From the NCBI GenBank assembly GCA_030873995.1, contig GCA_030873995.1_4701.1: a stretch of DNA of 45,609 nt; one strand, 5' to 3'. The stretch comes from a phage. The position numbers and the translations under genes are program-made. The number at the start of each line of letters is the position of its first letter. Position 1 is the stretch's first letter. This document shows, piece after piece, positions 1 to 45,609 of this stretch. The notes below the pieces were generated by a model that did not search any database, was not told the DNA's origin, and was given only the letters and a program-made list of their open reading frames with translations.

Positions 1-270
1 AAAAAATTCAAACTTGCATCTGATAAGTTAGACAACAATATGGTAACTAAGCCTAAGCACTACGAGTTCTTTGATGGCGTAGAGGCAATCACTATCATTG
101 CCCGCAGTATGACCGAGAAGCAATTCGCTGGCTATTGCATGGGTAATGCTTTGAAGTACCGTCTACGTGCAGGTAAGAAATTCAACACTGAAGAAGATCT
201 GAAGAAAGCAGACTACTACAAAGAGTTATTCCAGAAGCATCGTCACGAATGTATTGATGAGGATATTTGA
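1..270 (+). CDS. nucleotide (dNMP) kinase, T7 gp1.7-like, C-terminal part; open to window start and in frame with 45376..45609
   Basis: Block HYEFFDGVEAITIIARSMTEKQFAGYCMGNALKYRLRAGKK matches the T7 gp1.7 C-terminus as recalled; no stop between position 1 and 270 in this frame. Confidence 0.55.
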   Translation, partial: KKFKLASDKLDNNMVTKPKHYEFFDGVEAITIIARSMTEKQFAGYCMGNALKYRLRAGKKFNTEEDLKKADYYKELFQKHRHECIDEDI

Positions 271-271
271 G

Positions 272-460
272 ATGGAAGATAAACTTTATCAAGGCTATTA
301 CGGTATCTTATATAAGATAAGCCAGAATGGTTCTGTATTGGCTTCTTATGATAAAGGTGAAAGATGGCAGGTAAGTGCTTTTGGCTCTAACTTATCACGC
401 TTTAAAGAGGAAATAGCTAAAGGCGCTATGCTGGAGGTGAAGGTAGATGAATATCTTTGA
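272..460 (+). CDS. hypothetical protein (62 aa)
   Basis: ATG at 272 preceded by GAGGA; ORF track 254..460 trimmed to the RBS-supported start. Confidence 0.4.
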   Translation: MEDKLYQGYYGILYKISQNGSVLASYDKGERWQVSAFGSNLSRFKEEIAKGAMLEVKVDEYL

Positions 461-1394
461 GTTCCTAGGTCTTCCAGAAGACCACCGCAATCACCCATTC
501 ATGCTGGTGAAGCATCGCGGTGAAGTTCCTGAGAAGAAATTAACTTTTCCATGTTATGCACAGGTGAAACGAGATGGTATCTTTTCTGCTGTTGTTGTTC
601 GCGCTGATGGTGTCGTTGGCATTTTTGGTCGCACTGGTAAGAAACTGGCAAACACTGAAGGCCTCGAACAAACCTTTGCTACCTTTCCGGTTGGCGTTTA
701 TCTTGGTGAGCTTCAGTCTATGGCCGTTGATATCTACCTTGAGGCGATCTCTGGGGTTGTGAACCCTAACCGCACCGAGCCTCTTGATTTCATAGGTCAG
801 CAGATTAAAGATAACCTGTATATCGACTTCTTCGATATGTTAACTATTAAGGCATTCCACGATGGATTCACTGATGTTTCTTATCTCAAACGTTACGATG
901 CTTTACATCGCCGCATCGGCGCTCATCTTAGCGGGTACAACGCTATCCTTCCTATTACTCCTTGCCATAATGAGCGAGAAGTTGAAGCGTTTGCGCAAGA
1001 GCAGATAGACGCAGGCCGAGAGGGCGCTGTGTTTAAACTGGACTGTGATTATGAAGCAGGCCATAAAGGTTATCGTCAGACTAAAGAAGTCCGTAAGGTA
1101 ACTTATGACCTTACTTGCATTGGCTTTGAAGAAGGTAAAGGCAAGTACAAAGGTAAGGTAGCTAACCTCATTTTCAAATGGAAAGAGGGCAAGACAATCA
1201 AAGCTATGTTAGGTAAAGGGTGGACTCATGCAGATGCAGAACAGATGTTCCACGACATTAAACATGGTGGACGATTGAATGTCATTGGTAAAATCTTTGA
1301 AGTCAAAGGTCTTCAGGATTCAAGCAAGGGCAACATTCGTCTGCCCAAAGCGGGAGAATTAAGACATGACAAAGATGAACCAGATTTCTTTTGA
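447..1394 (+). CDS. ATP-dependent DNA ligase
   Basis: 315 aa; KxDG adenylation motif (VKRDG), EGAVFK and basic KGK-rich C-terminal motifs; RBS GGAGGTGA. Confidence 0.7.
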   Translation: MNIFEFLGLPEDHRNHPFMLVKHRGEVPEKKLTFPCYAQVKRDGIFSAVVVRADGVVGIFGRTGKKLANTEGLEQTFATFPVGVYLGELQSMAVDIYLEAISGVVNPNRTEPLDFIGQQIKDNLYIDFFDMLTIKAFHDGFTDVSYLKRYDALHRRIGAHLSGYNAILPITPCHNEREVEAFAQEQIDAGREGAVFKLDCDYEAGHKGYRQTKEVRKVTYDLTCIGFEEGKGKYKGKVANLIFKWKEGKTIKAMLGKGWTHADAEQMFHDIKHGGRLNVIGKIFEVKGLQDSSKGNIRLPKAGELRHDKDEPDFF

Positions 1395-2392: not shown

Positions 2393-3943
2393 ATGAGGCA
2401 AGACACCGACCTTGAATATGGTGGCAAGCGGTCTAAGATACCTAAGCTGTGGGAGAAGTTATCAACTAAGCGTAACCCATTTATGGATAGGGCTAAACAT
2501 TATGCCAGACTCACCTTGCCTTACCTTATGAATGAGGAGGGTGATAACAATACATCTCAAAACGGATGGCAAGGTGTCGGTGCTCAAGCCACTAACCACT
2601 TAGCTAACAAGTTAGCGCAAGTTCTCTTCCCTGCTCAACGCTCTTTCTTCCGAGTTGACTTGACAGCAAAAGGAGAGAAGATATTAAACAACAGAGGTCT
2701 TAAGAAGACCAAATTAGCTACGCTATTTGCTCAAGTAGAGACTGCTGCTATGAAGCAGTTAGAGCAGCGGCAGTTCCGCCCAGCGGTGGTGGAGTGCTTC
2801 AAGCATTTGATTGTTGCTGGCAACTGTATGTTGTACAAGCCAAGCAAGGGTGCAATCAGTGCGATACCGATGCATCACTATGTAGTTAATAGAGATGCCA
2901 ATGGTGAACTGCTGGATATTATCTTACTGCAAGAGAAGGCTCTCAAGACATTCGACCCTGCAACTCGCATGGCTATTGAAGTAGGCATGAAGGGTAAGAA
3001 GTGCAAAGACAGTGATAATGTAAAACTCTACACACACGCCAAGTATGAGGGTGAAGGTTTTTGGGAATTAAAGCAATCAGCAGATGATATTCCTATTGGT
3101 GAATCTAGCAGAATCAAGGCTGATAAACTCCCATTCATCCCTCTTACTTGGAAGAGGTCGTATGGGGAAGACTGGGGTCGCCCTCTTGCAGAGGATTATT
3201 CTGGGGATTTATTCGTAATCCAATTTCTGTCCGAAGCAGTTGCACGTGGCGCTGCTTTGATGTCCGACATTAAATACCTGATTCGTCCAGGTGCTCAGAC
3301 AGATGTAGACCATTTTGTTAACTCGGGAACGGGTGAAGTAATCACTGGCGTGGAAGAGGACATCCATATTGTACAATTAGGGAAGTATGCAGATCTAACA
3401 CCAATAAGTGCGGTGCTAGAAGTTTATACCCGCCGTATCGGCGTAGTCTTTATGATGGAGACTATGACGCGACGAGATGCAGAACGTGTAACTGCTGTAG
3501 AGATACAGCGAGATGCTCTTGAGATTGAGCAGAACATGGGTGGCGTGTATTCCCTCTTTGCTACGACCATGCAGACTCCCGTGGCTATGTGGGGTTTGCT
3601 TGATGCAGGTGACTCTTTCACTAGTGACCTAGTAGACCCTGTTATCATCACAGGCATTGAAGCGTTAGGTCGCATGGCAGAGTTGGATAAGCTGGCTAAC
3701 TTTGCTCAGTATATGGCATTACCTATGAGTTGGCCTGAGCCGGTACAGGCAGCAGTAAACTGGCCGGATTATATGGATTGGGTTCGTGGTCAGATCTCTG
3801 CTGAACTTCCATTCTTAAAGTCAGAAGAGCAGATGAAGCAAGAACAAGCACAGATGGCACAAGCACAGCAAGAGCAGATGCTTAATGAAGGAGTAGCTAA
3901 AGCTGTGCCGGGTGTCATTCAACAAGAACTTAAGGAGGCGTAA
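2393..3943 (+). CDS. portal (head-to-tail connector) protein
   Basis: 516 aa, T7 gp8-like size and position before scaffold and capsid; AGGAG RBS. Confidence 0.85.
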   Translation: MRQDTDLEYGGKRSKIPKLWEKLSTKRNPFMDRAKHYARLTLPYLMNEEGDNNTSQNGWQGVGAQATNHLANKLAQVLFPAQRSFFRVDLTAKGEKILNNRGLKKTKLATLFAQVETAAMKQLEQRQFRPAVVECFKHLIVAGNCMLYKPSKGAISAIPMHHYVVNRDANGELLDIILLQEKALKTFDPATRMAIEVGMKGKKCKDSDNVKLYTHAKYEGEGFWELKQSADDIPIGESSRIKADKLPFIPLTWKRSYGEDWGRPLAEDYSGDLFVIQFLSEAVARGAALMSDIKYLIRPGAQTDVDHFVNSGTGEVITGVEEDIHIVQLGKYADLTPISAVLEVYTRRIGVVFMMETMTRRDAERVTAVEIQRDALEIEQNMGGVYSLFATTMQTPVAMWGLLDAGDSFTSDLVDPVIITGIEALGRMAELDKLANFAQYMALPMSWPEPVQAAVNWPDYMDWVRGQISAELPFLKSEEQMKQEQAQMAQAQQEQMLNEGVAKAVPGVIQQELKEA

Positions 3944-4842
3944 TGTCTTTTGAAATTATTAATGAACCTGTAAGTCAGTCTGACGTTACTGAATCTAAGG
4001 AGGCTGCTGATGTTACTACTACCGACAACGATTCTACTGTTGATTCTTCTGGCAGCGATGTACAAGCTGACACAGGCAGTACAGATGTACAAGACACCAG
4101 AGGAGAAGATGCTGGAGAAGATGGAGCAGGAGCAGAGGCTGGTGGACAGGATGATAAATCTGAGCCAAATGACACCACAGATGCGCGGTTCTTCTTCGGT
4201 GAACAAGAAGTAGAGATTGAGATTCCTGATGACGTGTCAACTGCCTTGAAAGAGAAAGGTATTGATGCTATGCAGGTTGCCAAGGAGTTGTATGGCGAAG
4301 GTGGTAAATTTGAACTCAAGGAAGAGACAAAGCAGAAGTTGTATGATGCTTTTGGTAAGTTTGCTGTAGACGCCTACCTGAATGGCCTTAAGGCCTCCAA
4401 CGAAGCATTCATGCTCAAAGCTGAGACTCAAGCAAAAGAGGCGGAGGCTGCTGATGCTCAGCGCTTCACTGATATTGCATCTGAGGTTGGAGGGGAAGAA
4501 GGCTGGTCACGCCTTGAAGAGTGGGCGCTTGAAACCCTCTCGGATGAGGAGCTAACCGCGTTTAATGCTGTTATGGCCTCTGGCAACCAGTACCTGCAAC
4601 AATATGCTGTTCGTGAACTGGAAGGTCGCCGTAAGCAAGCGCAAGGGGACGATAAGCCGTCTCTGATTGAGCCATCAGCACCTGCTAAGGCTAATGAGGA
4701 TAACGGGCCATTAACTCGCGATCAGTATGTACATGCCATTGCAACTCTGAGCCAGAAGTATGGTAATGACCGTAAGGCTATGGCAGAAGCTCAGGCGAAA
4801 CTGGATGCCCGTCGCCGTGCTGGCATGGCTCGCGGTATCTAA
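3943..4842 (+). CDS. capsid assembly scaffolding protein
   Basis: 299 aa, very acidic, low-complexity N-terminus; start overlaps portal stop (TAATG); between portal and capsid. Confidence 0.75.
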   Translation: MSFEIINEPVSQSDVTESKEAADVTTTDNDSTVDSSGSDVQADTGSTDVQDTRGEDAGEDGAGAEAGGQDDKSEPNDTTDARFFFGEQEVEIEIPDDVSTALKEKGIDAMQVAKELYGEGGKFELKEETKQKLYDAFGKFAVDAYLNGLKASNEAFMLKAETQAKEAEAADAQRFTDIASEVGGEEGWSRLEEWALETLSDEELTAFNAVMASGNQYLQQYAVRELEGRRKQAQGDDKPSLIEPSAPAKANEDNGPLTRDQYVHAIATLSQKYGNDRKAMAEAQAKLDARRRAGMARGI

Positions 4843-22336: not shown

Positions 22337-22415
22337 GTAAGATAGCGCCGTTCTTTTGAGCGGCCTATTACTAGCCAATCTTCATAGGGAGGGTTGGAAA
22401 GTAATAGGAGATAGC

Positions 22416-24314
22416 ATGGCTAAATTAACCAAACCTAATACTGAAGGAATCTTGCATAAAGGACAATCTTTGTATGAGTACCTTGATGCGAGAGTTTTAA
22501 CATCAAAGCCGTTTGGTGCTGTAGGTGACGCCACTACTGATGATACGGAGGTTATAGCTGCTTCATTAAACTCTCAGAAAGCTGTCACAATCTCAGACGG
22601 TGTATTCTCTAGCTCTGGTATTAATAGTAATTACTGTAACTTAGACGGTAGAGGTAGTGGGGTGCTAAGTCACCGTTCCAGTGCAGGTAACTACTTAGTA
22701 TTTAACAATCCACGTACAGGTCGCTTAAGTAATATTACGGTAGAAAGTAATAAGGCGACTGATACAACTCAGGGACAGCAGGTATCTCTTGCTGGTGGAA
22801 GTGATGTTACTGTAAGTGACGTTAACTTCTCAAACGTTAAAGGTACTGGTTTCAGTTTAATCGCATACCCTAATGATGCGCCACCTGATGGACTTATGAT
22901 TAAAGGCATTCGAGGTAGCTATTCAGGCTATGCTACTAATAAGGCAGCCGGATGCGTACTTGCTGACTCCTCAGTTAACTCCCTCATAGATAACGTCATT
23001 GCTAAGAGCTACCCTCAGTTCGGAGCAGTAGAGTTGAAAGGTACAGCCAGTTACAACATAGTCAGTAATGTTATAGGGGCAGATTGCCAGCATGTAACTT
23101 ACAACGGCACTGTAGGGCCAATAGCCCCTTCTAATAACCTTATCAAGGGGGTGGTGGCTAATAACCCTAAGTATGCAGCGGTTGTTGCAGGCAAAGGAAG
23201 TACGAACTTAATCTCAGACGTGCTCGTAGATTACTCAACTTCTGATGCTAGGCAGGCTCATGGTGTTACAGTAGAGGGTTCTGATAACGTCATAAATAAT
23301 GTGCTTATGTCAGGATGTGATGGTACTAACTCTTTAGGACAAGGGCAGACTGCTACAATTGCACGCTTTAGAGGTACAGCTAATAACAACTATGCGTCTG
23401 TATTTCCTAGCTACAGTGCTACAGGTGTTATTACTTTCGAATCCGGCTCTACCCGTAACTTCGTAGAGGTAAAGCACCCTGGCAGGAGAAACGACCTTCT
23501 CAGTTCTGCTAGTACTATTGACGGTGCAGCTACTATTGACGGCACTAGTAATAGTAACGTAGTGCACGCACCTGCCTTAGGGCAGTACATAGGTAGTATG
23601 TCAGGTAGGTTCGAATGGCGGATTAAGTCCATGTCACTCCCTTCAGGTGTTCTTACTTCTGCTGATAAGTACAGAATGCTTGGAGATGGTGCTGTGTCAT
23701 TAGCTGTAGGTGGTGGCACTTCTTCTCAAGTTCGCCTATTTACTTCTGATGGTACTTCTCGGACAGTGTCCCTCACCAACGGTAACGTGCGTCTTTCTAC
23801 CAGTAGCACAGGCTTTTTGCAGTTAGGTGCTGATGCAATGACCCCAGACAGTACTGGTACATACGCATTAGGTTCCGCCAGTCGAGCATGGTCTGGCGGT
23901 TTTACTCAAGCAGCATTCACTGTTACCTCAGATGCTCGGTGTAAAACAGAACCTCTTACTATCTCAGATGCCTTACTAGATGCTTGGTCTGAAGTTGACT
24001 TTGTGCAGTTTCAGTATTTGGATCGTGTTGAGGAGAAGGGTGCAGACTCAGCTAGATGGCACTTTGGCATCATCGCTCAGCGAGCTAAGGAGGCCTTCGA
24101 ACGTCACGGTATAGATGCACATCGCTATGGCTTCTTGTGCTTCGACAGTTGGGATGATGTATACGAGGAAGATGCCAATGGCTCTCGTAAACTGATTACA
24201 CCAGCAGGTTCCCGCTACGGTATTCGTTACGAGGAAGTACTGATATTAGAGGCTGCGTTGATGCGGAGGACTATTAAGCGTATGCAGGAAGCACTAGCTT
24301 CCCTGCCTAAGTAA
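22416..24314 (+). CDS. tailspike 1 with C-terminal intramolecular chaperone (peptidase S74-like) domain
   Basis: 632 aa; N-terminal FGAVGDATTDDT beta-helix signature; C-terminal SDARCK...WHFGIIAQ autoproteolytic motif; promoter 22314 upstream. Confidence 0.75.
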   Translation: MAKLTKPNTEGILHKGQSLYEYLDARVLTSKPFGAVGDATTDDTEVIAASLNSQKAVTISDGVFSSSGINSNYCNLDGRGSGVLSHRSSAGNYLVFNNPRTGRLSNITVESNKATDTTQGQQVSLAGGSDVTVSDVNFSNVKGTGFSLIAYPNDAPPDGLMIKGIRGSYSGYATNKAAGCVLADSSVNSLIDNVIAKSYPQFGAVELKGTASYNIVSNVIGADCQHVTYNGTVGPIAPSNNLIKGVVANNPKYAAVVAGKGSTNLISDVLVDYSTSDARQAHGVTVEGSDNVINNVLMSGCDGTNSLGQGQTATIARFRGTANNNYASVFPSYSATGVITFESGSTRNFVEVKHPGRRNDLLSSASTIDGAATIDGTSNSNVVHAPALGQYIGSMSGRFEWRIKSMSLPSGVLTSADKYRMLGDGAVSLAVGGGTSSQVRLFTSDGTSRTVSLTNGNVRLSTSSTGFLQLGADAMTPDSTGTYALGSASRAWSGGFTQAAFTVTSDARCKTEPLTISDALLDAWSEVDFVQFQYLDRVEEKGADSARWHFGIIAQRAKEAFERHGIDAHRYGFLCFDSWDDVYEEDANGSRKLITPAGSRYGIRYEEVLILEAALMRRTIKRMQEALASLPK

Positions 24315-24398: not shown

Positions 24399-26582
24399 AT
24401 GCTTCAAAGATTAGGGGCAATGTTTGTTCGGTACAAAAATAAAGTAGGTAATGCTATCGAGCGTACACTACAAAGTAAATTACAGGATGTAGTAAGTGTA
24501 AAGGATTATGGCGCTATTGGTGATGGAGTATATCGTTCACTTGGTGCTAAATTTACCACGTTAAGTATGGCACAAGTAGTATACCCGCATGCGGAAAGTT
24601 TAACTCAATCGCAAGATTGGGCGGCTATTCAGGCTGCACTTAATTCTCACTCAAAAGTGTACATTCCAGCAGGTAAGTACATGCTATCTGATACCATTGA
24701 GATGCGCGGCGGTCAAACTCTGCAAGGTGACGGTATTGATTCTTGGGTTGCAGGTTATGCTGGGTTTGTAAAAGATAATCAAGGCACTCACCTCATAATG
24801 GTGGGAGATGGAAATAAGAAGTATACATTAGATCATGTATCTAACTTCGATGTAGAAGGTGGTGTCATAGACAACCCAGCGAAGAGTGATGCTTATACTG
24901 CCACTGCACCTTCCCCTAATTACTCATTTACTAACTTCACTAACGCTAACGCCTCTGGTGCACAACGTGCTACATTGAAACCTTTCAGCGTAGCATTACG
25001 TTGCACAGGTCACGGTGGTGTTTATCTTCGTGACTTCCGTATTGTGCCTAATCACAGAGGGCAAGAAGGTTATAAGGATGAGTTGTCAACTGCATTAGGG
25101 GACGCATGGGATGTAGGTATTTGGCTGGAGAATACATCTGACTCAGTGTTATCTTCTGTGCAAGCAGTTGGTTACTGGCGTATTGCAGGTGTTATGAAGA
25201 CTTGTATTCCACAAGAGGGTTCCTTTGTTGGTGGAGAGCGTGATAGGATATACAATTGCACATTACAAGGTTATCGTGGTTTCTTAGCACGTTCGCATGA
25301 TACTTACCAAGTAGAAGAAGTATCAGGTAACACTGTATCGATTAAGTGGTCTGCATCTCACACTTTCGAACCTTCTGGTAAAGTTCGTATCCAAGGGAAA
25401 GACCGTAGTTATACTAGCCTGTCTGTATCTGGTGACAAATTAGTCTTCAATGGTATTGACGATGTATCAGGTATTAATACCAATAGCTATGTGAGAGTTT
25501 CAGGGTCTTCATTCGGAATGTCTGCTACTCAACTAAATAACACATACATCGCTGCATTAAACCATCATGCTCGCTTGCCAGCAACCTCTAATCTTTTAGA
25601 TAATAGGTTTTCTACTTCGGCAGCTTGCTATGAAGTTGCAGGTGAACCAATTCGTGCCATAAAATTATCTAACTGTACTGTCATTACTTGGGATGACATC
25701 TTAGGTATGACTGGTGGTATTCGGGATTTCCAGACGACAGATACTTACTTCGAGTCTCAGCCTTTCCGTACTTCTGTGCAAGGCTTGGCAAGCACCACAC
25801 AACCTGCTGGTTCTCGCATGATTGCACTTCGTGGACGTCAAGGTTCTAAAACTACAGGATATCAAGCTATCGGTTGTACTTATGGGCCAGGTGTAGACTT
25901 AAGTCCTCGTTATGAAAGCGATGTATCTCGTTACACAACTTCAGGTGGTATGTTCAATCCAAGAGAAGATTTGAACACAACTAAGCAGTTACCAATGAGG
26001 CAAGACGCTACTGAGCTATCTTCTACTTCTGACTTATTCCTTACACATGCTGTAGGGCGGAAGGCCTATGTTGGCGCTACCTCTGGTGATGCAACGCTTC
26101 AATCTAGAACTGGATCATTGAATATCCAATCAGGACTTCGTGTACGGATTGGTGGCACTGATGGTAGTGGTTGGTATATTGCTGACAGTGCTAAGTTGAC
26201 ACCTACTGCTGACAATGCAAGGGCTTGTGGACAGCCTAATGGACGATGGACTGTTGTCTATGCTGTTAATGGTACAATCCAGACTTCTGATGGTAGATTC
26301 AAGGAAATCCTTGAGATTGAACAGGCAGAACTTGATGCTGGTCTTGAATTATCAGCAAACCTAATTAAGTATCGGTGGAATGGGGAAGATAAAATTCACT
26401 TTGGTTGCATAGCACAAGAAGTGATGTTAATACTGGAGAAACATGGCCTAGACCCATTACAATATGATATGGTTCAGTATGATGAGGAGGCAGACATCTT
26501 TGGGGTAAACTATGCTGAACTCAACAGCTTCTGTATTGCAGCATTATCGAGGAAGTTAAATGCCATTAATAAAATCAGTTAA
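24399..26582 (+). CDS. tailspike 2 with C-terminal intramolecular chaperone (peptidase S74-like) domain
   Basis: 727 aa; VKDYGAIGDG signature; C-terminal SDGRFKE...HFGCIAQE; AAGGAGG RBS. Confidence 0.75.
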   Translation: MLQRLGAMFVRYKNKVGNAIERTLQSKLQDVVSVKDYGAIGDGVYRSLGAKFTTLSMAQVVYPHAESLTQSQDWAAIQAALNSHSKVYIPAGKYMLSDTIEMRGGQTLQGDGIDSWVAGYAGFVKDNQGTHLIMVGDGNKKYTLDHVSNFDVEGGVIDNPAKSDAYTATAPSPNYSFTNFTNANASGAQRATLKPFSVALRCTGHGGVYLRDFRIVPNHRGQEGYKDELSTALGDAWDVGIWLENTSDSVLSSVQAVGYWRIAGVMKTCIPQEGSFVGGERDRIYNCTLQGYRGFLARSHDTYQVEEVSGNTVSIKWSASHTFEPSGKVRIQGKDRSYTSLSVSGDKLVFNGIDDVSGINTNSYVRVSGSSFGMSATQLNNTYIAALNHHARLPATSNLLDNRFSTSAACYEVAGEPIRAIKLSNCTVITWDDILGMTGGIRDFQTTDTYFESQPFRTSVQGLASTTQPAGSRMIALRGRQGSKTTGYQAIGCTYGPGVDLSPRYESDVSRYTTSGGMFNPREDLNTTKQLPMRQDATELSSTSDLFLTHAVGRKAYVGATSGDATLQSRTGSLNIQSGLRVRIGGTDGSGWYIADSAKLTPTADNARACGQPNGRWTVVYAVNGTIQTSDGRFKEILEIEQAELDAGLELSANLIKYRWNGEDKIHFGCIAQEVMLILEKHGLDPLQYDMVQYDEEADIFGVNYAELNSFCIAALSRKLNAINKIS

Positions 26583-41660: not shown

Positions 41661-41683
41661 ATTTACTGGACACTATAGAAGAG
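41661..41683 (+). promoter_or_regulatory. phage-RNAP promoter
   Basis: ATTTACTGGACACTATAGAAGAG exact consensus; palindrome 41630..41645 upstream. Confidence 0.85.
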
Positions 41684-42105: not shown

Positions 42106-42169
42106 TAATAGCAGGTGTTGCCTCTGTTAGTCCTGGTTGACTATCACGCTCATCTCATCTAATGCCCTG

Positions 42170-42196
42170 TCTGCCTTAGTGTAGGCAGGGTCTTTT
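42170..42196 (+). terminator. hairpin plus T-run, terminator candidate
   Basis: 7-bp stem with 6-nt loop followed by TCTTTTG. Confidence 0.35.
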
Positions 42197-42222: not shown

Positions 42223-42513
42223 ATGCCGACTATTGAAGAACGTTTCCTGATTCACGTGAGCTTCTCATCCATACATCTTGGTTATCTTATCACTATTCTC
42301 TTAGGTGAAGAGATTTATCTGCATAACCACTTAATACCAGAGTATGTATGTCACCGAGATAAGATACACCCTACTAATTGGGCGAAAGAGTGGCTGCGTG
42401 AACATGTGCTGAAGGAGTGGCCTACATGCGACCAAACTTCGACTTCGGAGCTACAGTATCGGAAGACAATAACCTGTTGCTGTGGCCGACTGAAGGTAAT
42501 CGAATCGCTTTAA
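42223..42513 (+). CDS. hypothetical protein (96 aa), 3' end overlaps the exonuclease start
   Basis: GGAGAA RBS; preceded by a hairpin terminator candidate. Confidence 0.4.
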   Translation: MPTIEERFLIHVSFSSIHLGYLITILLGEEIYLHNHLIPEYVCHRDKIHPTNWAKEWLREHVLKEWPTCDQTSTSELQYRKTITCCCGRLKVIESL

Positions 42514-43451
42514 TAGATGCTGATATGTTACCCTATATTGTAGGATATACTATCAGTGACATGACTTATGTACGAGCCACAACTCGTGTTAAGTCAGGAC
42601 AAGTCCCATCAATCAAGGATACACCTGAATGTAAGCAAGCATGTGACCGTGTGAACTCCTTGCTTAACTCTTGGGTGTATGCAGCAGAGTGCGATGCAGC
42701 TAAGTTATTCATGACGAAATCAGAAGCTAACTTCCGTGTTCGCCTAGCATTCACCAAGCCTTACAAGGGTCAACGTAAGACCGAGAAGCCTCCATTCTTC
42801 TATGAATTGCGAGAGCATCTCTTAGAGGTTCATGGTGCAATCTTGGCTGATGGTGAGGAAGCAGATGACCTAATGAGCATCGCACAATGGGACAGCCATC
42901 GCCGCTTCCAGCAAGATACAGGTAACGAGTTCCCTATCGGTAGTCCAGAGCATAAAGCATTCTCTGATACTTGCATCGTTTCCTTAGATAAGGATTTGAT
43001 GATTGTTCCCGGTTGGCATCTACAGCCGGGAGGTGAGAAGAAATGGGTAGAGCCTATGGGTTGGCTTGAGCTACGCCGCAAGGCTAATGGTCAAGTGAAA
43101 GACCTTAAAGGTGCTGGCCTCATGTTCCACTATGCACAGATGATTATTGGTGATGACATAGATAATTATGCTGGCATACCGGGACGTGGTGCTAAATATG
43201 CCTATGCTCTTCTCAAAGACTGTAAGACAGAGAAAGAATTGTACATGGCAGTGCTTGGTGCATACAAGGCTAAGTTCGGTCATGGACAAGTTAAGATTAA
43301 GAATTACCGAGGTGGTTATCGTATCGGCAAAGCCTTTGACCTGATGCTTGAATGTGGTCGCCTAGCTCACATGGCAAGATTCAAAGGGGACATATGGCGG
43401 GCCGATAAGAACCCAATCTTGTGGGGAGATGACGATGGATGGATGCATTGA
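42426..43451 (+). CDS. 5'-3' exonuclease (gp6-like, FEN family)
   Basis: Motifs RIALIDADML, GEEADDLMSIA, SLDKDLMIVPG, GDDIDNYAGIPG; GAAGGAG RBS before ATG 42426. Confidence 0.8.
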   Translation: MRPNFDFGATVSEDNNLLLWPTEGNRIALIDADMLPYIVGYTISDMTYVRATTRVKSGQVPSIKDTPECKQACDRVNSLLNSWVYAAECDAAKLFMTKSEANFRVRLAFTKPYKGQRKTEKPPFFYELREHLLEVHGAILADGEEADDLMSIAQWDSHRRFQQDTGNEFPIGSPEHKAFSDTCIVSLDKDLMIVPGWHLQPGGEKKWVEPMGWLELRRKANGQVKDLKGAGLMFHYAQMIIGDDIDNYAGIPGRGAKYAYALLKDCKTEKELYMAVLGAYKAKFGHGQVKIKNYRGGYRIGKAFDLMLECGRLAHMARFKGDIWRADKNPILWGDDDGWMH

Positions 43452-43872
43452 CCATGGGTGTAAAGGTTATGGCATGGGCTACGCTACTGCCTTCTATAAA
43501 GGTAGATGTGGTAAGAAGAAATATACCACTAAGCACAGGCTAGTTTACTGTAAGCACCATAACATTCACCCTGAAGATTTGCCTAAAGATATTGTTATTA
43601 GGCACAAATGTGATAATGCACGTTGTATCAATCCTTTACATTTAGAGTCTGGTACACATCAAGATAACATGAAGGACATGGCTGTCCGTGGCAGAGCCTA
43701 CAAAGGAGGGATGCCAGGAGAAAAGAATGGCAGATGTGTGCTTTCTGATTTACAAGTAGCAGAATTACGCGCCTTACGTGCTAAAGGGTTTACTTGTAAA
43801 GCTCTAGCTGAACGGTATGGCATAGGTACTACTCAAGTATCTAGACTAGCAAGAGGAGAACAACGTGCGTAA
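43435..43872 (+). CDS. HNH endonuclease with C-terminal helix-turn-helix
   Basis: HKCDNARCINPLHLESGTHQDN motif; GGGGAG RBS before ATG 43435. Confidence 0.7.
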   Translation: MDGCIDHGCKGYGMGYATAFYKGRCGKKKYTTKHRLVYCKHHNIHPEDLPKDIVIRHKCDNARCINPLHLESGTHQDNMKDMAVRGRAYKGGMPGEKNGRCVLSDLQVAELRALRAKGFTCKALAERYGIGTTQVSRLARGEQRA

Positions 43873-44275
43873 GATGAAGCAATCTGAACTTGGTGAAGTT
43901 CGTGATATACTGTGTGAAAGACAAGGTTGGCGTTGCCCTATTTGTGGAGGTCATTTAAAACTTATCTCTAAAGCAAATAGGGTCGTTGACCATTCACACG
44001 ATAATGTAGGTGCAGTCCGTGGTGTATTATGCCGTGGGTGCAATGGAGGTATCGGCAAGATAGAAGCGTATGCACAGTCGTATTGTAAGGCTGGCAATAA
44101 TACGCTTGAGGTTATCAAAGTTCTACGTAATCTTGCGGACTACTTAGAACTCCATCGCACACCGCAGACAGAGTGGATTTATTACAAACATCAAACGGAG
44201 GCAGAGAAACGAGAGGCTAAGAATCGTAAGGCTCGCCTTGCTTATGCAAGAAAGAAGGAGGCTAAGAGTGGCTAA
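43865..44275 (+). CDS. recombination endonuclease VII-like (Holliday junction resolvase)
   Basis: CPICGG...VVDHSHDN...RGVLCRGCNGG signature. Confidence 0.75.
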   Translation: MRKMKQSELGEVRDILCERQGWRCPICGGHLKLISKANRVVDHSHDNVGAVRGVLCRGCNGGIGKIEAYAQSYCKAGNNTLEVIKVLRNLADYLELHRTPQTEWIYYKHQTEAEKREAKNRKARLAYARKKEAKSG

Positions 44276-45275
44276 ACTTCGTAGCCTTTATAAAGACTCC
44301 GAGGTGCTTGATGCAATCGAGCAAGCTACCGACGAGAAAGGTAATGTTAACTATAATGAGATGGCGAAGATCCTATCTAGCCACCCTGTGGGTAAGAAGA
44401 TCACCCGTCAACTTGCTCGGTATTGGCATGGTCAATTTAAGAAGACCAAGAAGAATGGCGATTACTACCAGACTCTTCTGCAAGAGGATAAGCGTATCAA
44501 AGAAGAGCGTAAGCTCAGGACTCCTGACCGCTACGAGGATTTGGCTATTGTACCATTGCCTGACTCGCCTCATCGAAGTGTACTGGTAATCCCTGATACT
44601 CATGCACCTTATGAGCACCCAGATACCCTAGAGTTCCTTGCAGCCGTGGCGGCACGTTACCGTCCAGACACAGTGGTACACCTAGGAGATGAGGCAGACA
44701 AACATGCCCTGTCATTCCACGATTCGGACCCAAATCTGGATAGTGCTGGCATGGAGCTAGAGAAGGCTCGTGTCTTCATGCACAAGTTGCACAAGATGTT
44801 CCCTGTGATGCGCCTGTGTCATTCTAATCACGGCTCTATGCACTTCCGTAAGGCAAGCGCCAAGGGTATTCCAGTGCAATATCTTCGCACCTACCGTGAA
44901 GTCTTTTTCCCAAATGGAGGTGGCGACCAGTGGGATTGGCAGCATACACATGTTCTTGAGTTGCCGAATGGTGAACAAGTGGCATTCAAGCATCAACCTG
45001 CTGGCTCTGTCCTAGCAGATGCAGCGCATGAGCGTATGAACCTTGTGTGTGGTCACTTGCACGGTAAGATGTCTGTGGAGTACGCACGTAATACACATGA
45101 ACAGTATTGGGCTGTGCAAGGTGGCTGCTTAATTGATGAGTCATCCCGTGCATTTGCCTATGGGCGTGAGTCTAAATACAAGCCAGCATTAGGTTGTGTG
45201 GTTATTCTGGAGGGTGTACCTCATATTGTCCCGATGCAAACCAATAGCGACAACCGTTGGATTGGCAAGATTTAG
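44268..45275 (+). CDS. calcineurin-like metallophosphoesterase with about 100-aa N-terminal extension
   Basis: Motifs IPDTH, GDEAD, SNHG, GHLHG; AAGGAGG RBS 7 nt before GTG 44268. Confidence 0.65.
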   Translation: MAKLRSLYKDSEVLDAIEQATDEKGNVNYNEMAKILSSHPVGKKITRQLARYWHGQFKKTKKNGDYYQTLLQEDKRIKEERKLRTPDRYEDLAIVPLPDSPHRSVLVIPDTHAPYEHPDTLEFLAAVAARYRPDTVVHLGDEADKHALSFHDSDPNLDSAGMELEKARVFMHKLHKMFPVMRLCHSNHGSMHFRKASAKGIPVQYLRTYREVFFPNGGGDQWDWQHTHVLELPNGEQVAFKHQPAGSVLADAAHERMNLVCGHLHGKMSVEYARNTHEQYWAVQGGCLIDESSRAFAYGRESKYKPALGCVVILEGVPHIVPMQTNSDNRWIGKI

Positions 45276-45292
45276 TTGACACTATAGAACAA
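45270..45292 (+). promoter_or_regulatory. phage-RNAP promoter, SP6-like variant
   Basis: ATTTAGTTGACACTATAGAACAA; differs from the local consensus at -12 and -10. Confidence 0.6.
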
Positions 45293-45375: not shown

Positions 45376-45609
45376 ATGTCACACTATGAATGTAAGAAGT
45401 GTCATAAGCGTTATGATTACTGTACTTGTGGTCAAGAGAAAACATCTTTTAAAGTTGGAGACAAGGTATTTCGTAATGAAAAAGATTCGATTCCTTGGAA
45501 TCAATACTGCAAAGAAGCTGGTATTGACCCTGATAGCCCTGTAACCATAGATGATATTGATGGCATTAACTTGTGCTTTCGTGAGGTGAGGGGTACAGGT
45601 TGGGATTCC
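45376..45609 (+). CDS. nucleotide kinase gp1.7-like, N-terminal Cys-rich part; runs off the window end in frame with 1..270
   Basis: GGAGG RBS; Cys-rich N-terminus (CKKCH...CTCG); no stop before the window end; promoter 45270 upstream. Confidence 0.5.
   Translation, partial: MSHYECKKCHKRYDYCTCGQEKTSFKVGDKVFRNEKDSIPWNQYCKEAGIDPDSPVTIDDIDGINLCFREVRGTGWDS

Follow-up and report, generated by a model that had tools for sequence, protein, structure and literature searches.

The element considered here is a metallophosphoesterase (MPE) gene located at positions 44268-45275 (plus strand) of a phage DNA of 45,609 nucleotides (nt) (NCBI GenBank assembly GCA_030873995.1, contig GCA_030873995.1_4701.1), which at its full length is designated below as the window. 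The closest described relatives of its product are actinophage MPEs, namely gp47 of Bxb1, gp54 of L5, and gp48 of A10ZJ24. The last of these, a cluster A relative of Bxb1 gp47, was characterized as a phosphodiesterase that is active on bis-pNPP, degrades linear, circular, and genomic DNA, becomes inactive in the motif I mutant D10G, and is required for the phage to replicate its DNA in M. tuberculosis (PMC12287305). For Bxb1 gp47 a weak 3' exonuclease activity with Mn2+ or Mg2+ was reported, with Mre11 and DP1 as the top structural neighbours (PMC11795197), and in the passage of the same paper that cites Savinov et al. 2012 this protein is given as required for Bxb1 DNA replication.

The MPE gene of the window is already known, being annotated in hundreds of phage genomes, and its family is already delineated in PHROGs. 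According to the present analysis its product has about an even chance of being a DNA-tethered, metal-dependent nuclease of the replication/recombination module. What the analysis itself shows comprises the layout of the gene, the intactness of its motifs, its fold, family and domain architecture, its transcriptional and translational setting, and the synteny, and it adds to previous annotations an explicit link to the Bxb1 gp47 family, a helix-turn-helix (HTH)-like extension, the kinase/nuclease synteny, and a case against a healing-and-sealing cassette. An earlier interpretation made from the DNA letters (the sequence-only reading) had considered the function not deducible from sequence alone, which was too pessimistic, since the protein shares its PHROG with Bxb1 gp47 and since the relative A10ZJ24 gp48 has been studied experimentally. 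Among the three functions offered at that time the nuclease is favoured here, while the end-healing set and the signal-degrading enzyme fare poorly.

Family Membership and Fold

The only PHROG matched by the window protein was PHROG 221, "metallo-phosphoesterase" (E=2.3e-105, profile positions 14-358 of 367). Bxb1 gp47 (E=4.5e-116, profile positions 110-363) and gp59 of Gordonia phage Rosalind (E=3.3e-112) matched the same PHROG over their full length, and L5 gp54 and A10ZJ24 gp48 are linked to gp47 only through the Bxb1 record note and PMC12287305. When an alignment of 46 MPE sequences, reaching down to 49% identity (designated as A1), was compared by hhalign, the probability was 87.6% over 191 columns for Bxb1 gp47 and 95.6% over 205 columns for Rosalind gp59, and the control, lambda phosphatase NinI, reached 9.4% over 80 columns. 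Because the NinI value is low and NinI itself belongs to PHROG 246, the link between the window MPE and gp47 is more specific than a generic MPE similarity. Homologues of the MPE amount to 2807 database proteins at E<=1e-3, and a match is present in 657 of 50,697 phage records, so the family match is far above chance.

The profile-profile match with Bxb1 gp47 spans all five MPE motifs, the best structural neighbours of both proteins include PolD DP1 and Mre11, and both genes are placed among replication genes near endonuclease VII. The two proteins differ, however, in several respects: actinophage MPEs, with a length of about 255 amino acids (aa), do not carry the N-terminal HTH-like extension of the window protein, and the window loop KHALSFHDSDPNLDSAG is not conserved in gp47. 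In addition gp47 is the recombination directionality factor of Bxb1; such a role does not apply to the MPE of the window phage, which lacks a serine integrase and has a strictly lytic life style.

In the structure comparison the window protein was found to have the MPE fold, and its best matches were the PolD DP1 exonuclease, YfcE, and MJ0936, with LpxH and SbcD/Mre11 close behind, while lambda-type protein phosphatases obtained a lower score. In the Foldseek search against the PDB LpxH was ranked first, with a template modelling (TM) score of about 0.37, and was followed by Mre11. Of the proteins that the sequence-only reading proposed for comparison, SbcD/Mre11 is among the close fold matches and lambda protein phosphatase stands lower. 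The fold confirms an MPE and leans away from protein phosphatases, but nucleases and phosphodiesterases of small molecules cannot be told apart by it. No meaningful match was obtained when the PDB was searched by sequence, whether the protein or the family profile served as query, the best one being an unrelated GST at E=0.49.

The structural neighbours differ from the window MPE in the following respects. Archaeal PolD DP1 (PDB 5IHE), an MPE-type 3'-5' proofreading exonuclease, shares 12% identity with it but contains an OB-fold domain and works strictly as a subunit of a polymerase, whereas the window phage has a family A DNA polymerase. The Mre11/SbcD proteins, including T4 gp47 and the T5 D12-type, differ in motifs II and III and carry a DNA-binding or capping domain at the C-terminus, while the window MPE ends with its core at residue 335 and has its extra domain at the N-terminus only. 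No open reading frame (ORF) for a Rad50/SbcC partner was found in the genome, where every ORF of at least 600 aa was assigned to another function (tail and internal virion proteins, terminase, two tailspikes, RNA polymerase, primase-helicase, and DNA polymerase). YfcE, MJ0936, and LpxH, with 11-16% identity to the window MPE, are proteins of 165-240 aa without a DNA-binding module and are bacterial housekeeping enzymes outside phage replication modules. An LpxH-type function was considered separately and rejected, as the TM score is only about 0.37, LpxH is an enzyme with a lipid-binding cap, and a reaction of lipid A metabolism would be out of place among replication genes of a phage.

Catalytic Domain

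The calcineurin-like phosphoesterase motifs had been described as intact, and indeed all five are invariant in the alignment A1. Their positions in the window are as follows.

44568-45272, plus strand: catalytic MPE domain, residues 101-335, with the core beginning at about residue 101
44595-44603, plus strand: motif I, D110-T-H112
44685-44699, plus strand: motif II, G140-D141-E-A-D144 (invariant columns)
44823-44831, plus strand: motif III, S186-N187-H188, a variant of GNH[DE]
44991-44993, plus strand: motif IV, H242
45051-45062, plus strand: motif V, G262-H263-L-H265

The set of five motifs that defines the MPE superfamily PF00149 (DxH, GD, [G]NH, H, and GHxH) is therefore complete in the window protein, with motif III opening with S and not with G. 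The Pfam Metallophos profile PF00149 was passed barely, with 21.7 bits against the cut-off of 21.5.

The same motifs bear on the name "phosphatase 2a-like protein", which is found in some GenBank records and which, together with the general MPE fold, could point to a lambda-type Ser/Thr protein phosphatase. However, motif II of the window protein is GDEADKH and not GDxVDRG, motif III is SNHGS and not GNHE, and the hhalign probability for lambda NinI (9.4%) and the placement of NinI in PHROG 246, not in PHROG 221, speak against this assignment as well. The likelihood of a protein phosphatase is accordingly minimal, and at the family level it is essentially excluded.

Motif II is followed by the near-invariant family-specific loop KHALSFHDSDPNLDSAG, which is modelled with a low predicted local distance difference test (pLDDT) value. 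Near-invariant family-specific loops are located beside the active site at residues 144-161 (44697-44750, DKHALSFHDSDPNLDSAG) and 186-202 (44823-44873, SNHGSMHFRKASAKGIP). These two are the lowest-confidence parts of the AlphaFold2 model, with pLDDT of about 47-60, and may become ordered only in the presence of substrate, metal, or a partner.

A separate observation concerns the homologues P0121, P0131, and P0155, in which an intein of ~300 aa is inserted at motif II (GDE/C...N/C), and the homologue P0158, in which a ~300-aa intein with a LAGLIDADG_3 domain is inserted at motif I (DLH/C...N/C). Otherwise these proteins are collinear with their intein-free relatives. Inteins are known to cluster at conserved sites of replication and repair proteins, and their presence in this family is counted in favour of the nuclease reading.

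N-Terminal Extension

Ahead of the catalytic core the window protein carries one more region.

44268-44567, plus strand: N-terminal extension, residues 1-100, with helices 10-20, 29-37, and 47-57 followed by a Lys/Arg-rich linker

An extension of roughly 100 aa had been noticed by the sequence-only reading, and the start of the core at about residue 101 agrees with it. Since the core begins there and since the best-scoring listed relatives are mostly ~235-aa cores without any extension, it is a real, lineage-specific addition. In the predicted structure the extension is confidently helical; it is basic, with pI of 9.27 (above 9 in 16 of 19 homologues), and contains the invariant residues L36, L49, Y52, and W53 within a helix-turn-helix-like pattern MAxxLS...VSxxLARYW. 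Pfam recognizes no domain in it, isolated single matches at E>=0.02 being all that came up among 19 N-terminal extensions. In distant relatives with other N-terminal extensions Pfam HTH domains are found ahead of the same MPE core, namely HTH_24 in P0187 (27.4 bits with the cut-off of 21.9) and HTH_23 near the cut-off in P0166 and P0144. From these features the extension, basic and composed of three helices in an HTH-like arrangement, probably serves in DNA binding.

The recurrent fusion of an HTH-type module to the MPE core should be considered together with the suggestion of a small-molecule phosphodiesterase or pyrophosphatase, which would hydrolyse a cyclic (oligo)nucleotide immune signal, an Ap4A-type dinucleotide, a nucleotide-sugar, or an alarmone and would serve anti-defence or host takeover. 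The fold neighbours allow such chemistry, and the near-invariant active-site loops 144-161 and 186-202, which are of low confidence in the model, would be in keeping with it. However, the fusion is unexpected for a soluble signal-degrading enzyme, the gene is placed in a replication/recombination string and not among early host-takeover genes, and the relatives in or near PHROG 221 (Bxb1 gp47 and A10ZJ24 gp48) are tied to DNA replication and degradation. No PADLOC model was matched at E<=1, which is a partial test for anti-defence because PADLOC contains defence-system models. Acb1 and Apyc1, the known enzymes by which phages degrade such signals, are built on other folds, and this also counts against a small-molecule role. 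Such a role is thus regarded as unlikely, and its particular form proposed earlier, an anti-defence enzyme degrading a nucleotide signal, gained no positive support, with the PADLOC search empty and a DNA-binding-type N-terminal module that was not to be expected.

Gene Structure and Transcription

Megablast of the region and the K1-5 annotation identify the window as the entire genome, in circularly permuted form, of a K1-5/SP6-like Vectrevirus (Autographiviridae, Molineuxvirinae), with all long ORFs on the plus strand. The MPE gene is gene 22 of K1-5 (AY370674) and SP6 (AY370673) in the numbering of the original GenBank records, and its protein is 99.7% identical to that of phage vB_EcoP_KAW1A4500 and 93% identical to that of SP6. 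The ORF had been delimited exactly by the sequence-only reading, and the elements that define its expression are listed below.

44268-45275, plus strand: MPE gene, 1008 nt, 335 aa, supported by the ORF and the start context, with the length of the annotated K1-5 gene
44268, plus strand: GTG at which translation of the MPE gene starts
44255-44261, plus strand: Shine-Dalgarno sequence AAGGAGG of the MPE gene, read directly from the sequence, with a 6-nt spacer to GTG
43865-44275, plus strand: endonuclease VII, junction resolvase (PF02945 E=2.6e-13, phrog_423 E=1.6e-41)
42417-43451, plus strand: 5'-3' exonuclease, T7 gp6-like (phrog_107 E=1.6e-71, Pfam 5_3_exonuc)
41661-41680, plus strand: nearest upstream phage promoter, heading the unit of gp18-like ORF, exonuclease, HNH, endonuclease VII, and MPE
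45270-45289, plus strand: SP6-type promoter ATTTAGTTGACACTATAGAA, a perfect match lying over the last codons and the stop of the MPE gene and heading the kinase/ligase unit

The start of the MPE gene overlaps the stop codon of endonuclease VII (44273-44275), with an overlap of 8 nt, and translational coupling of the two genes is implied by this arrangement. The alternative start TTG at 44238 has no Shine-Dalgarno sequence and is located inside endonuclease VII, and the GTG at 44268 was preferred. From the exonuclease onward through the MPE the starts and stops overlap. In the whole window 10 matches to SP6-type promoters were detected, all on the plus strand, against 0 expected in shuffles.

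This organization has to be confronted with the possibility that the MPE is a counter-defence nuclease, which would use the same chemistry but would be selected for destroying the host genome and so shutting down host transcription, that of defence genes included. Such a role was reported for the gp47-type mycobacteriophage MPE A10ZJ24 gp48 (PMC12287305), and the DNA-binding-type N-terminal module would fit it. The homology with gp48 is remote, however, and the window MPE is transcribed not early but with the middle DNA-metabolism genes, downstream of DNA polymerase and primase-helicase; its link to deoxynucleoside monophosphate (dNMP) kinases, endonuclease VII, and exonuclease fits salvage and replication better. 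The chance of this role is estimated as low, and the same low chance is given to a wider version of it, an HTH-tethered counter-defence enzyme that would either erase the host chromosome, as claimed for A10ZJ24 gp48, or hydrolyse a nucleotide-derived immune signal or a DNA-damage alarm molecule, with the loops 144-161 and 186-202 as a hitherto undescribed substrate-recognition element.

Synteny and the Ligase Linkage

Downstream of the MPE gene the following genes are arranged across the window join.

45377-45609, plus strand: gp1.7-like nucleotide kinase, N-terminal part, continuing at 1-270 (the K1-5 homologue has 504 nt)
1-270, plus strand: gp1.7-like nucleotide kinase, C-terminal DUF3310 part (PF11753 E=5.8e-26, phrog_2585 "nucleotide kinase")
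254-460, plus strand: 68-aa ORF (phrog_15259) between kinase and ligase, overlapping both
447-1394, plus strand: ATP-dependent DNA ligase (DNA_ligase_A_M and DNA_ligase_OB_2, phrog_114 E=9e-73)

The order of the kinase and the ligase past the MPE had been recognized correctly before, with the 68-aa ORF and the SP6-type promoter now additional to it. The constancy of this arrangement was estimated in 80 IMG/VR loci and 7 GenBank loci, which form 15 clusters at 70% core identity. Endonuclease VII immediately precedes the MPE in the majority or the whole of 10 of the 15 clusters, and in fewer than half of the members of an eleventh. For the ligase, a position within 2 kb downstream of the MPE (at 0.4-1.9 kb) predominates or is universal in 6 clusters, 26 of 26 scorable SP6-like loci included, and is seen in a minority of a seventh; in the remaining clusters it is absent from the locus or located 5-7 kb upstream. 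The latter position, or no visible ligase, is seen in several RNA polymerase (RNAP)-late lineages, the phiR8-01 locus has no ligase, and in KP34-like phages, whose locus contains no ligase, the MPE gene follows the DNA polymerase gene within about 1.1-1.6 kb.

Next after the MPE gene comes, depending on the phage, a DUF3310 kinase or a P-loop dNMP kinase (phrog_139), the latter being observed in the loci L021, L022, L024, L025, L029, L033, L034, L039, L040, L044, L003, and L060. This replacement of one kinase by the other is a non-orthologous displacement. In the Gordonia phage Rosalind (L007), an unrelated actinophage, the DUF3310 gene gp60 (3579-4028; Pfam 8.8e-19) overlaps the MPE gene gp59 (4025-4789) by 4 nt and so repeats the MPE-DUF3310 pairing of the window. 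Thus, the steady partners of the MPE across lineages are exonuclease, endonuclease VII, and dNMP kinase, not ligase, and this constancy of nucleases and dNMP kinases argues for DNA breakdown, nucleotide salvage, and replication rather than for nick sealing.

The alternative in which nick sealing is central, raised by the sequence-only reading as an end-healing/sealing set, makes the MPE a partner of the ligase that would strip 3'-phosphate or 2',3'-cyclic-phosphate blocks, after which the ligase would reseal nicks left by host or defence nucleases. Chemistry of this kind is carried out by the phosphoesterase domain of Clostridium thermocellum Pnkp and by lambda phosphatase. It would agree with the ligase position in the SP6-like and other loci mentioned above and with a weak, short match of the MPE to TIGR04123, the ligase-associated nuclease PdeM (E=9e-5). 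The Pseudomonas putida MPE/PdeM, a ligase-associated Mn2+ single-stranded DNA endonuclease, resembles the window MPE in being a stand-alone protein near an ATP-dependent DNA ligase. However, the match is local, around motifs I-II, covers 33 residues only, and scores 21.9 bits against the cut-off of 150, with nothing found in the NCBIfam scan of the MPE except this sub-threshold fragment. Moreover, the setting of PdeM includes an Lhr-type helicase, which is not present in the window phage, and the linkage with the ligase varies among lineages of the phage family. Thus KP34-like, phiR8-01-like, and several other phages retain the MPE although their ligase is encoded 5-7 kb upstream or is missing from the locus.

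The neighbouring genes do not resemble a healing system either. Pnkp-type healing-and-sealing systems possess a polynucleotide 5'-kinase component, while the kinase next to the window MPE is DUF3310 gp1.7-like and its counterpart elsewhere is a P-loop dNMP kinase, neither of them being a polynucleotide kinase. The sealing enzyme of the locus, moreover, joins DNA and is no RNA ligase. T7 gp1.7 phosphorylates dNMPs and not polynucleotide 5' ends, and in T7 the adjacency of kinase and ligase (genes 1.3 and 1.7) exists without any MPE, which counts against end healing. In the window an SP6-type promoter separates the MPE from the kinase/ligase unit, while on the other side the MPE start overlaps the endonuclease VII stop. 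Because of the kinase type, the promoter in between, the variable linkage with the ligase, and a PdeM score far below the cut-off, end healing is disfavoured and has to be viewed as quite improbable.

Proposed Function

In the favoured reading, the DNA-tethered nuclease, the MPE would be a two-domain enzyme of the middle (DNA-metabolism) gene class, composed of an HTH-like module with a linker (residues 1-100) and a binuclear MPE domain (residues 101-335). It would act as a metal-dependent, probably Mn2+-dependent, DNA phosphodiesterase with exonuclease and/or endonuclease activity, and the N-terminal module would hold it on DNA. Working alongside the co-expressed 5'-3' exonuclease and endonuclease VII, the enzyme would attack host chromosomal DNA and/or replication and recombination intermediates. 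This action would support phage DNA synthesis, and the released dNMPs would be recycled by the neighbouring dNMP kinase. In this scheme the choice of DNA as substrate, the metal used, and the part played in infection are inferred from the observations described above.

Several facts weigh against the nuclease. The kinship with gp47 is remote, about 22% identity, and motif I of gp47 is D-T-Q rather than D-x-H, having Q for the motif I His, while motif III of the window MPE lacks the usual acidic residue after N-H. YfcE and MJ0936 reach fold scores as high as those of DP1, which leaves nuclease and small-molecule hydrolase unseparated, and the top rank in Foldseek belongs to LpxH. The published evidence for nuclease activity is itself weak or subject to reservations: a contaminating nuclease could not be excluded by the authors who observed its exonuclease activity (PMC11795197), and, according to PMC12287305, in Savinov et al. 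2012 the protein had no phosphoesterase activity. Finally, the literature found on the phosphoesterase of SP6, K1-5, and KP34 consisted of genome reports only, with no functional work on the Autographiviridae members.

Other Features of the Locus

Some neighbouring features of the window deserve description in their own right. The first of them is located in the unit upstream of the MPE.

43429-43872, plus strand: HNH endonuclease with a C-terminal HTH tail (Pfam HNH_3, phrog_59)

The HNH gene overlaps both the exonuclease and the endonuclease VII genes; in K1-5 it is absent from this place, and in other relatives it occupies the same slot or stands between endonuclease VII and the MPE. This variable position suggests a mobile homing endonuclease. 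In the same transcription unit, between the gp18-like ORF and the exonuclease, there is a strong terminator-like hairpin (42164-42191, plus strand) with an 11-bp stem, 6 G-C pairs, and a T-rich tail, which may serve either for termination or for processing of the RNase III type.

The N-terminus of the kinase (45377-45440, plus strand) is Cys-rich, MSHYECKKCHKRYDYCTCG, and judging by these residues looks like a small zinc-binding element ahead of DUF3310, at the level of a candidate. Across the joined ends of the window the kinase reads as one continuous frame of 167 aa, which rules out a frameshift there. The 68-aa ORF following the kinase was detected in only some close relatives (L008, L012, L013, and L026). 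The window also contains two tailspike genes in tandem (22356-24314 and 24399-26582, plus strand), like the dual-tailspike K1-5-type phages.

Implications

Although no new kind of system is revealed by these data, the MPE emerges as a conserved DNA-metabolism gene of SP6-like, KP34-like, and many other Autographiviridae. Its carriers include many Klebsiella, E. coli, and Pseudomonas phages, therapy candidates among them. The placement in the gp47 family turns an "unknown phosphoesterase" into a concrete testable hypothesis of a DNA-tethered nuclease, which would feed or protect phage DNA synthesis, and the work on mycobacteriophage MPEs may carry over to the SP6-like and KP34-like phages.

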